From NCBI GenBank assembly GCA_034521815.1, contig JAXHLW010000013.1, positions 448,001-512,000 of the forward strand: a stretch of DNA of 64,000 bases. The letters run 5' to 3'. Source of the stretch: Trueperaceae bacterium. Lineage in GTDB: Bacteria; Deinococcota; Deinococci; Deinococcales; Trueperaceae. Made by a program: the position numbers. Positions 34,018 to 37,000 of this stretch are shown piece by piece. The first letter of the stretch is position 1. The number at the start of each line of letters is the position of its first letter.

Positions 34018-37000
34018 TCAGGGCCGAGCTCGGGCGCGAGGTCGACGACGTAGGCGAGCGCGTGGCTGGTCTCGAGCGCGGGAATGATGCCTTCGATCTC
34101 GGCCAGCATGCCGAACGCGCGGAGCGCCGCTTCGTCGTCCACGGACACGTACTCGGCGCGGCCGGCGTCGGCGTACCAGGAGTGCTCCGGGCCGACGCCG
34201 GGGTAGTCCAGCCCGGCGGACACGGAGTGCGCGGGCGAGATCTGACCGTCGTCGTCCGACAACAGGTACATCAGCGCGCCGTGAAGAACGCCGCGCTTGC
34301 CGGCCGTGATGCTCGCCGCGTGCGCGCCGCTGTCCATCCCGTGGCCGGCCGCCTCGACGCCGATCAGGCGCGGTCGCTCGCCGTCCGGCAGGTAGGCGTA
34401 CGGGGCGAAGATGCCGATCGCGTTGCTGCCGCCGCCGACGCAGGCGACGATCGCGTCGGGGGCGCGTCGGCCGGTCCGCTCCTCGAGCTGATCCATCGTC
34501 TCCCGCCCGATCACCGACTGGAAGTCGCGCACCATCATCGGGTAGGGATGCGGGCCCACGACCGAGCCGATCACGTAGAAGGTCGACCGAACGTTCGTGA
34601 CCCAGTCGCGGATCGCCTCGTTCGTGGCGTCCTTGAGGGTGCGCGTGCCGCTGGCGACCGGCCGGACCTCCGCCCCGAGGAGCTTCATGCGGAACACGTT
34701 CAGCGCTTGCCGGCGGACGTCCTCCTCGCCCATGTACACCACGCACGGCAGGCCGAACAGGGCGGCGGCGGTCGCGGTCGCCACGCCGTGCTGGCCCGCT
34801 CCGGTCTCCGCGATGATGCGGGTCTTGCCCATGCGCTTGGCGAGGAGCACCTGTCCGACGGTGTTGTTGATCTTGTGGGCGCCGGTGTGGTTCAGGTCCT
34901 CGCGCTTGAGCCAGATGCGTGCTCCGCCGAGGCGCTCCGTCAGGTTCGCGGCCAGGCTGAGGCGGCTGGGCCGTCCGACGTACTCGTGCAACACGTCGCT
35001 CAGCCGGGCCTGGAAGTCCGGATCGGACGCGGCCGAGCGGTAGGCGGCCTCGAGCTCGTCGAGGGCGGGGATGAGGGTCTCGGGCACGTAGCGCCCGCCG
35101 TAGATGCCGAAGCGGCCTCGGGCATCGGGCTGAGGGAACTGGGGCTGAGGAAACTGGGGCTGAGGAACCATGGACCTCCTCCGATCCGGCGCGAGGCCGG
35201 CGGACGGGTGAGCGGGAGCGGCATGAGCAGGGCCTGGCTGACGAGGTCGAGCTGAGGTCGAGCTGATGGGGTCTAGCTGCGCGCAACGAGCTGCACGGGC
35301 CGGATCAACCGCGACGACGCCGCCAACGCTGGTGGCGGTGCTTGAACGCACGGGGCGTCCGGACGCGGGACCTCGGTCGCATGGCCGCGAGTCTACCGGG
35401 CGGTCCCGGGCGTGTCCAGGCCGTCCCCAGGTGCGCGGGGCGGGCCGCCGGGTCCGGGACCGCCGTGCAGCCACCCCAGCGCGGCGTCGTCGAGGCGGAC
35501 CGGATGGCGCGGCACGGCGGCCAGCTCGAACAGCTCGGCGAACCGTTCGGCCTGCAGCGGCTCGGGGCGCTCGATCTGTCCCAGCGACCAGGCCAGCAGG
35601 CCCACCACCCGCTCCGGGGGGACGCCCGCGTCGCGGAGCGCGCCGACGGTGAGGTCGCCGCGCCGCTTCGCCAGGCGCGCGCCGTCCGGACCGTGGAGCA
35701 GCGGCAGGTGCGCATGCCGAGGCGCTCGCTGATCCAGCAGCCGGGCCAGGACGCGCTGCGCCGCGGTGGAGGGCAAGAGGTCGTCGCCGCGGACCACCTC
35801 GTCGATGGCCATCGCGGCGTCGTCGACCACGACCGCGAGCTGGTACGCCCAGGCACCGTCGGCACGTAGGAGCACGATGTCGCCGACCTCGCGCGCCACC
35901 TCGCTCTCGCGCGGCCCGGCGAGAAGATCGTCCCACCGCTCGGTCCCTTCGGGCATGCGCAGCCGGATCGCCGGCTCCTTGCCCTGGGCCCGCTTGTCGG
36001 CCTCCGCACGGGCGTTCGCGGCGCGCTCGCGTGGGCCGTACACGGCGCCCGCACCGTGAGGTGCGGACGACAGCTCGCGAAGGTCCTTGCGCGACAGCCA
36101 GCAGCGGAACGTGCGTCCGTCTTCGCGGAGGCGCTCCAGCGCGTCGGCGTAGCGGTCCTCGCGCAGCGATTGACGGTACGGCCCGAACGGTCCGCCCACG
36201 TCGGGACCCTCGTCCCAGTCGAGCCCCAGCCAGCGAAGCTCGGCGACGTTCCCGGTGACCGCCTCGGGCACGGTGCGTGGGCGGTCGAGGTCCTCGACCC
36301 GCAGCACGAAGCCGCTCCCGTCGGAACGGGCCCGCGCCCAGGCCGCCAGGGCGGTACGGGCGTTGCCGAGGTGCTGCGCTCCCGTCGGCGAGGGCGCGTA
36401 GCGGCCGCGCGGCACGGGCGCTCAGCCCTCCCGGACGTCCACTCGGCCGGTGCCTTCGTCCACGGCGTCCACCGCCGCGAGGGACACGACCGGCACGCCG
36501 AGCGGCTCGAGGCGGACGCGTCCCTCCTGGAACGTCTTCTCGATCACGGTGCCGATGCCCTGCAGATCGGCTCCCGCCCCCAGGATCAGGCGGGCGAGCG
36601 CATCGATCGTCAGGCCGCTGGCCAGAAAGTCGTCGATCAGCAGCACCCTGTCGCCCGCCTGGAGCGCCTCTGACGACACGACCAACGGCGTGACGCCGCC
36701 CTTCGTCGGGCTGGGCGCCTCGGCCTGGAACACCGGCCCGGGCATCGTGGCGGGCCGCTTCTTGCGCGCGTACACGACCGGAGCGCCGTAGGCGATCCCG
36801 GTCGCGAGCGCGGGGGCGATCCCCGACGCCTCGGCGGTCACGACGACGTCGACCTCGCTCACGCCGACCGCCTCGAATCGCTCGCGGAACGCTCGGCCCA
36901 TGGCCAGCGTCAGCTCGGGCTCGAGGCGGTGGTTGAGGAAGCCGTCGACCTTGAGCAGGCCGCCGGGCAGCACGCGCCCTCCTTCACGGATTCGCTCGAC

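Follow-up and report, generated by a model that had tools for sequence, protein, structure and literature searches.

The window analyzed here, a stretch of 64,000 nucleotides from a Trueperaceae genome, carries the tryptophan synthase genes trpB and trpA, which in this genome lie separate from trpEG. The features around the trpB start, in the direction of transcription, are as follows.

35393..36415, minus strand: GluQRS, glutamyl-Q tRNA(Asp) synthetase, the upstream neighbor (NF004315, above cut-off)
35418-35413 and 35395-35390, minus strand: promoter-like site from a promoter scan, with a -35 element TGGACA and a -10 element TAGACT separated by 17 nt
35382-35305, minus strand: unannotated leader ORF, predicted to be leaderless, of 25 codons plus TGA
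35323..35367, minus strand: conserved core of the leader, motif positions -1 to 13
35183..35304, minus strand: C-rich spacer without an intrinsic terminator, a candidate Rho-loading stretch with this function putative
35175..35182, minus strand: Shine-Dalgarno (SD) sequence of trpB, GGAGGAGG
33921..35171, minus strand: trpB, tryptophan synthase beta chain (NCBIfam TIGR00263, 601.7 bits, cut-off 392)
33142..33924, minus strand: trpA, tryptophan synthase alpha chain, downstream of trpB (NCBIfam TIGR00262, 241 bits, cut-off 102)

The TGGACA-17-TAGACT site was the sole promoter-like site that the scan returned in 33000-36500 (shuffle mean 0.1), and the TAG of its -10 box doubles as the stop codon of the gluQ-like gene. 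Only 7 nt separate the -10 box from the leader ATG, and the leaderless ORF placed before trpB by a first-pass annotation was recovered at 35382-35305. By likeness to the leader peptides of Deinococcus deserti described in the cited part of PMC4007540, the transcript presumably starts at the leader ATG itself. The core of the window's leader holds a single Trp codon (35325-35323). Between the leader ORF and the trpB start (35171) lie 133 nt, with a C-G skew of 0.33 over the 63 nt preceding the SD region. Two repeats were also seen on the minus strand: an 11-nt direct repeat in the spacer (35245-35266) and, at the start of trpB (35130-35168), a 15-nt unit in almost three repeats (PQPQF).

To survey the phylum, trpB was searched in 364 Deinococcota genomes and matched in 343, and the upstream regions of 230 trpB genes, picked by trpB score and family coverage and blind to the motif, were fetched. 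Families are denoted f1 to f5, with f1 the window's own, and genera by g-numbers, with g57 of the Meiothermus type; we infer that f2 is Deinococcus-type and g58 Thermus-type. Of the 230 regions, 147 (f1, 80/90; f4, 17/17; f5, 50/61) contain the motif R-x-R-T-P-R-x-[FY]-K-x-x-H-x-x-[WFY] in the 1 kb preceding trpB; it was absent before trpB in f2 (0/48 regions) and f3 (0/14 regions). Its carriers include Trueperaceae, Truepera, Meiothermus, Calidithermus and Oceanithermus. The earlier claim that the peptide is conserved before trpB in several families thus holds on a broader base of three families. Thermus-type genomes, in one of two of which it had earlier been missed, do carry the motif in 19 of 28 g58 regions; their version of it is frequently devoid of Trp. 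A profile built from 80 leaders matched 179 of the 364 whole genomes, nearly always in one copy; its two matches in f2 were weak (E 0.009 and 0.03). These genome tallies take in one unpublished genome, on which nothing else depends.

The ten f1 regions without the motif comprised one contig end, one genome whose leader stands before a second trpB copy, two regions interrupted by an EamA gene and six from genus g19. In the g19, f2 and f3 regions that were inspected, a -10-like box usually lies directly before the trpB start. The trpB transcript of D. deserti starts at -3, and Table S9 of the same study gives 14 leader peptides for that species; every one starts leaderless or almost so, trpE and trpS are represented, and trpB is absent from that table (PMC4007540). 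A looser pattern run over GTDB returned at least 118 stretches. Among the matches listed, 100 adjoin trpB, eight are Deinococcota-type with an inserted gene or short flank, ten are chance-like, and no convincing copy lies outside Deinococcota. Overall, the leader is a real and apparently undescribed family upstream of trpBA in three Deinococcota families.

Several arrangements at individual loci deserve mention. In genus g26, a gene for an EamA-family permease directly follows the leader in three regions, with trpB next in two of them, and in one other region a CAAX-protease-like gene stands right behind the leader; these genes may share the leader's control. One genome has two trpB genes, one without the leader peptide and following a gene that we take to be trpF-like, the other on a different contig and with the leader. 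A look-alike of the motif ending in H-G-R-W precedes a non-trp gene, probably by chance.

Across 141 leaders, the residue counts were R1 140, T2 140, P3 134, R4 120, F/Y6 141, K7 139, H10 139 and Q11 120, with R-1 kept in 131 of 137. The terminal W, earlier reported as invariant, proved variable: position 13 is W in 110 leaders, Y in 18, F in 9, L in 3 and a stop in 1. Synonymous change is free from R-1 to K7; R1 uses all six Arg codons, and third-position entropy reaches 1.5-1.8 bits at codons 1-3. In frame, the ratio pN/pS ranged over 0.06-0.26 within nine genera and came to 0.28 when each of 39 genera was represented by a single genome, and it exceeded 1.1 in the three other frames tested; a trpB control column, unaligned for the f1 genera, was left unused. 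The motif pattern fixed some residues; the regions were gathered without it, and the 39 genera show the same picture. Judged from these substitution patterns, selection acts on the leader peptide, as the first-pass annotation had held. A bias towards C-ending codons in the leader ORF was inconsistent.

The ends of the ORF are much freer than its core. In 126 of 147 copies the motif shares its reading frame with a boxed ATG lying no more than 75 nt upstream, in seven the frames differ, and the number of residues before R1, mostly three or seven, varies. Conservation fades at position 13-14, and the ORF may end at any codon between 14 and 52, with an earlier stop in 1/147. The notion that the ORF often stops right after W was not sustained, a stop after codon 13 occurring in only 26 of 147 copies.

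Trp codons are retained even at the tolerant positions 8 and 14. The core contains at least one in 139 of 147 copies (80/80 in f1), and a tandem W13-W14 occurs in 75 of 147. Of 31 genomes from g54-g57, all but one have W8, which is missing in 42 of 80 f1 copies, the window's included. Seven of the eight copies with no Trp codon belong to g58, whose variant reads R-T-P-F-A-[FY]-K-x-x-H-G-R-Y; six Trp-less g58 copies gave a pN/pS of 0.12. In several g58 genomes the variant is frameshifted, shortened or lost, and this genus also shows a second TAGGAT -10-like box closer to trpB and a divergent gene that is presumably thyX-like. Because of the several decayed copies and the second box, we give the Trp-less variant little weight as evidence. 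The H-Q and W-W codons could pair as a 6-bp hairpin, with 5-6 pairs in 99 of 147 copies, and such an RNA hairpin may account for part of the conservation there. H10 persists in g58 although the hairpin is broken.

Downstream of the leader, the lineages differ. An intrinsic terminator follows it in all 23 g57 regions, and also in g54; the g57 type occurs in eight of nine loci named Meiothermus. Ahead of the g57 terminator stands a stem in which six of nine pairs show compensatory changes (21 aligned sequences, from the 23 regions) and which begins 12 nt past codon 13 whether the ORF stops at codon 17 or at codon 29. The earlier statement that no terminator is seen therefore applies to only part of the family: neither the window nor any other region of f1 or f4 yielded one, and folding analysis found none for most g58 regions. 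The C-rich f1 spacer had likewise been missed. The C-G skew of these spacers is 0.38 in f1 (positive in 65/67), 0.21 in f4 and 0.00 in f5, compared with 0.00 upstream of the leaders and 0.04 at 153 SD-led starts in the window's own genome; the skew and accessibility tests cover regions whose spacers could be assigned and were neither short nor very long. In f1 the C-rich stretch starts about 20 nt past codon 13, and rho was present in all 61 genomes searched. The f1 and f4 spacers are candidate Rho-type sites, with which their composition is consistent. Translational control through the trpB SD was also considered and rejected, folding there showing no response to where the ribosome sits, in 60 regions of f1 and 13 of f4. 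Several g57 spacers contain arrays of a 7-nt tandem repeat between the terminator and the trpB SD.

We modeled the direction of control, on which the first-pass annotation was silent, by folding the leader RNA with the ribosome-covered part forced open. As controls we used 14 trpE leaders (15 genomes, f2-f5), which have in common only a W-W(-W)-P-type end; the terminator was not found for four of them, and in the other ten the terminator arm was captured with the ribosome at the Trp codons and freed with the ribosome at the stop (10/10). The trpB leaders of g57 showed the reverse of this classical trend in 19 of 23 cases, all from this one genus of related genomes. With the ribosome stalled at the Trp pair, freeing the terminator arm cost 1.1-1.4 kcal/mol in g57, equal to the null, and 11.7-12.0 kcal/mol in the 14 trpE leaders, above randomized arms in 14/14. 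The folding model thus firmly indicates that in g57 no strong classical antiterminator serves a ribosome stalled at the Trp pair. In g54 the terminator gained steadily as the ribosome advanced in three of four genomes, which is the classical trend. A designed antiterminator for a ribosome at the stop codon was examined and dropped, as it did not rise above the null.

A scan in 1-nt steps showed the g57 terminator arm at its freest when the ribosome edge has moved 9-17 nt beyond the first base of codon 13, a placement that puts roughly codons 12-14 in the P site. Codon 16, although it encodes five different amino acids among the g57 leaders, keeps G as its middle base in 23/23, and this G could pair with the first C of the terminator in 21/21; in the model, this suggests an opening helix that would be available while the ribosome is halted short of about codon 12, for example at W8. 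The modeled ON states gave 0.59 vs 0.59 for randomized arms with the ribosome past the stem and, with the ribosome stalled at W8, 0.45 vs 0.62, with energies of 3.7 vs 3.6 and 2.8 vs 3.9 kcal/mol, respectively, and the candidate opening helices were no better than column shuffles. The equilibrium terminator probability in g57 was 0.92-0.94 at every ribosome position. These results, together with the g54 trend and the kinship of the g57 genomes, speak against a reading in which the stall turns the operon off.

We take the leaders to control trpBA, and they are probably of the arrest type. Since conservation ends at position 13, the stop is free and the RNA stem keeps its distance from codon 13, we consider it quite likely that the nascent peptide, in one form or another, arrests the ribosome near codon 13. 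This part of the earlier proposal of an arrest-type, Trp-sensing leader stands, arrest being the best explanation of the 13-15 conserved residues; we hold its Trp-sensing part more loosely. The reading we tentatively favor, short of calling it probable, is that the leader acts in cis and that its nascent peptide, held when Trp is plentiful, shuts trpBA off. The nascent peptide, besides the Trp codons, would then govern premature termination of trpBA transcription, with the 13-15 conserved residues touching the ribosome exit tunnel. When Trp is plentiful, the ribosome would be held with codon 12-14 of the motif in the P site, where it would cover the bases that open the terminator and spare the upstream stem, so that transcription would end. 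When Trp is scarce, the ribosome would either stop earlier, at W8, or run unheld through the upstream stem, and both states would give more read-through. Trp could serve as a free co-ligand or only as the charged tRNA needed to reach the arrest point; the eight Trp-less copies favor a ligand, though seven of them belong to g58 with its decayed copies. The acceptance of F, Y or L at position 13 also counts for the favored reading. For f1, the window's family, the involvement of Rho would be an extrapolation, and so would the direction of control. Against the favored reading stand the Trp codons retained in 139 of 147 copies, the lack of W8 in 42 of 80 f1 copies, and the Rho-type leaders tnaC, speFL and cruR, whose stalled ribosome turns genes on (PMC12360218). 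The more specific version, in which the end product L-Trp is sensed in the exit tunnel and the biosynthetic operon is switched off through an intrinsic terminator or Rho according to lineage, in effect a TnaC of reversed output and unrelated in sequence, seems to us possible at best.

The nearest competitor, doubtful in our view yet deserving serious attention, is a hungry-codon attenuator amplified by the peptide, so that a single codon would suffice; under Trp-tRNA shortage, a ribosome dwelling at W13/W14 or W8 would turn trpBA on, by shielding a Rho site (f1, f4) or favoring read-through (f5), until Trp-tRNA releases it. Precedents for such a device, as presented in the cited parts of the sources, are PepNL (PMC11890864) and cruR and tnaC (PMC12360218). 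It would explain the Trp codon in 139/147 copies and in all 80 from f1, the classical trend in g54 and, in f1, the C-rich spacer in 65/67 regions alongside rho in 61/61 genomes, and for the window's own family it is no worse a fit than the reading we favor. The trpE leaders of f1, which usually end in one Trp with an invariant CGA-TGG (23/30), point the same way and suggest that this family relies on amplified single Trp codons. In g57, however, the terminator arm stays free when the ribosome stalls at the Trp pair, and the modeled OFF state arises neither from a ribosome at the stop nor from the absence of a ribosome; nor does a hungry codon sit well with eight copies lacking Trp or with F, Y or L at position 13. 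A substrate could instead be the signal, as in Pseudomonas, where TrpI mediates induction of trpBA by its substrate: an arrest peptide sensing indole, indole-glycerol phosphate or serine would suit the separation of trpBA from trpEG in the window's genome and the Trp-codon leader that trpE has of its own, and would tolerate Trp-less copies. The strong retention of Trp codons makes this improbable, as do tryptophanase-family matches in only 15 of 61 genomes, none above the cut-off, with many leader-bearers having none.

Two further explanations dispense with arrest. An ordinary classical attenuator or a conserved RNA element, with incidental peptide conservation, could draw on the 6-bp H-Q/W-W hairpin (5-6 pairs in 99/147) and on the W-W-x-G-stop geometry of g57, which resembles the W-W-P-G-stop of trpE. 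It is hard to reconcile with the frame-specific pN/pS, the free synonymous change from R-1 to K7, the persistence of H10 where the hairpin is broken, the trpE leaders outside f1 sharing only the W-W-P end, and the lack of an Rfam match, and we rate it as very unlikely. Slightly lower still we place a released peptide, small and basic, that would work in trans by binding RNA or protein, comparable to peTrpL of Sinorhizobium. The peptide is Arg- and His-rich, and its conserved positions 3, 6/7, 10 and 13 have helical spacing; against this, the leader almost always occurs just once per genome, at the head of the trpBA transcript, its N- and C-terminal lengths vary freely, and an RNA stem is spaced to codon 13.

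RAGP and RGPP are arrest motifs of SecM/ApcA/CruR-type peptides, and the fungal arginine attenuator peptide represses Arg biosynthesis. The trpB leader shares with arrest peptides as a class a tunnel-length stretch of amino-acid conservation in an upstream ORF at a fixed place before its target. With TnaC it has in common a short ORF conserved as peptide before a Trp-related operon, a C-rich spacer in one lineage, and a span of 13 residues from R1 to W13, the putative P-site residue, equal to that from W12 to P24 of TnaC (PMC8429421, cited part). Unlike TnaC, its stop position is free, its start is leaderless, and it precedes the biosynthetic trpB, with a proposed output of OFF where that of TnaC is ON; the TnaC residues W12, D16 and terminal P24, as given in that part of the source, are absent from the leader alignment. 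Classical trpL/trpE leaders, those of D. deserti in the cited part of PMC4007540 among them, resemble it in the leaderless start and the Trp codons near the end, and g57 adds an intrinsic terminator and the W-W-x-x-stop spacing. They differ in that the trpB leader has 13-15 conserved residues, often one Trp and sometimes none, and, from folding of g57, would have no strong antiterminator for a Trp-pair stall.

CruR, SpeFL and PepNL also stall on an upstream ORF peptide in response to a small molecule or Trp-tRNA (PMC12360218, PMC8429421 and PMC11890864, in the sections cited). CruR and SpeFL gate Rho-dependent termination (PMC12360218, PMC8429421), and in tnaC, speFL and cruR the stalled ribosome shields the Rho site and turns the genes on (PMC12360218), again according to the sections cited. 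They control other genes, however, and, as described there, their arrest falls at the stop codon and their RAPP or CXXC motifs do not appear in the trpB leader; the C-terminal motifs RAPP (PMC12360218), RAGP and RGPP are absent from the listed leader peptides. Closest in logic is the fungal arginine attenuator peptide, which from the cited parts of PMC8429421 and PMC13183943 senses an end product, tolerates a moved stop and, as proposed for the trpB leader, would lower a biosynthetic gene. It differs in being eukaryotic, in acting on scanning and mRNA decay, and in its unrelated sequence. Overall, the trpB leader resembles a metabolite-responsive arrest-peptide attenuator that, by the features tested, stands outside the TnaC, trpL and RAPP families.

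Database searches returned no relative of the peptide. The earlier lack of an NCBIfam match was reproduced and extends to Pfam, neither holding a family for the leader peptide, and Rfam gave only three chance-level matches in 34500-36500. The leader profile matched no PDB chain at E up to 10, none of five leader peptides occurred exactly among about 15 billion proteins, the top ESM Atlas score (0.76) was uninformative, and a plasmid search gave only weak matches in the trpB-internal part of the query. A likeness to ribosomal protein bL34 was considered and rejected, the score against the same genome's own bL34 being -4. None of the seven public RNA runs listed contained as much as half of the sequence words of a g57 locus. 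Our search of the open-access literature, a scope that leaves aside comparative attenuation surveys in subscription journals, found no paper on a trpB leader.

To our knowledge, few metabolite-sensing arrest peptides are known in bacteria; we know of none that responds to an end product by switching a biosynthetic operon off, and none appeared in the open-access search. TnaC and SpeFL, in the cited part of PMC8429421, are metabolite-sensing arrest peptides that induce degradative genes. The family described here opens two questions, how a nascent chain reads Trp and whether bacteria use arrest for feedback repression of amino-acid synthesis, and even if the hungry-codon alternative is true it would show a single hungry codon turned into a sensor. 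It supplies some 150 naturally occurring versions of a motif 13-15 residues long, including lineages with lost or moved Trp codons. Deinococcota ribosomes are standard for structure work.

Upstream of trpE in f1, we observed what looks like a second, undescribed attenuator with a single Trp. A leaderless ORF of 15-34 codons ending in R-W-[RW] is present in 23 of 30 regions; its peptide often reads W-T-G-x-L-G-R-W, and the rare codon pair CGA-TGG is invariant in it. CGATGG is also kept in three f1 trpE regions without an ORF, the window's genome included. In the latter, the gene before trpE, which we take to be fabI-like, shifts frame near its 3' end, a frameshift or an assembly error.
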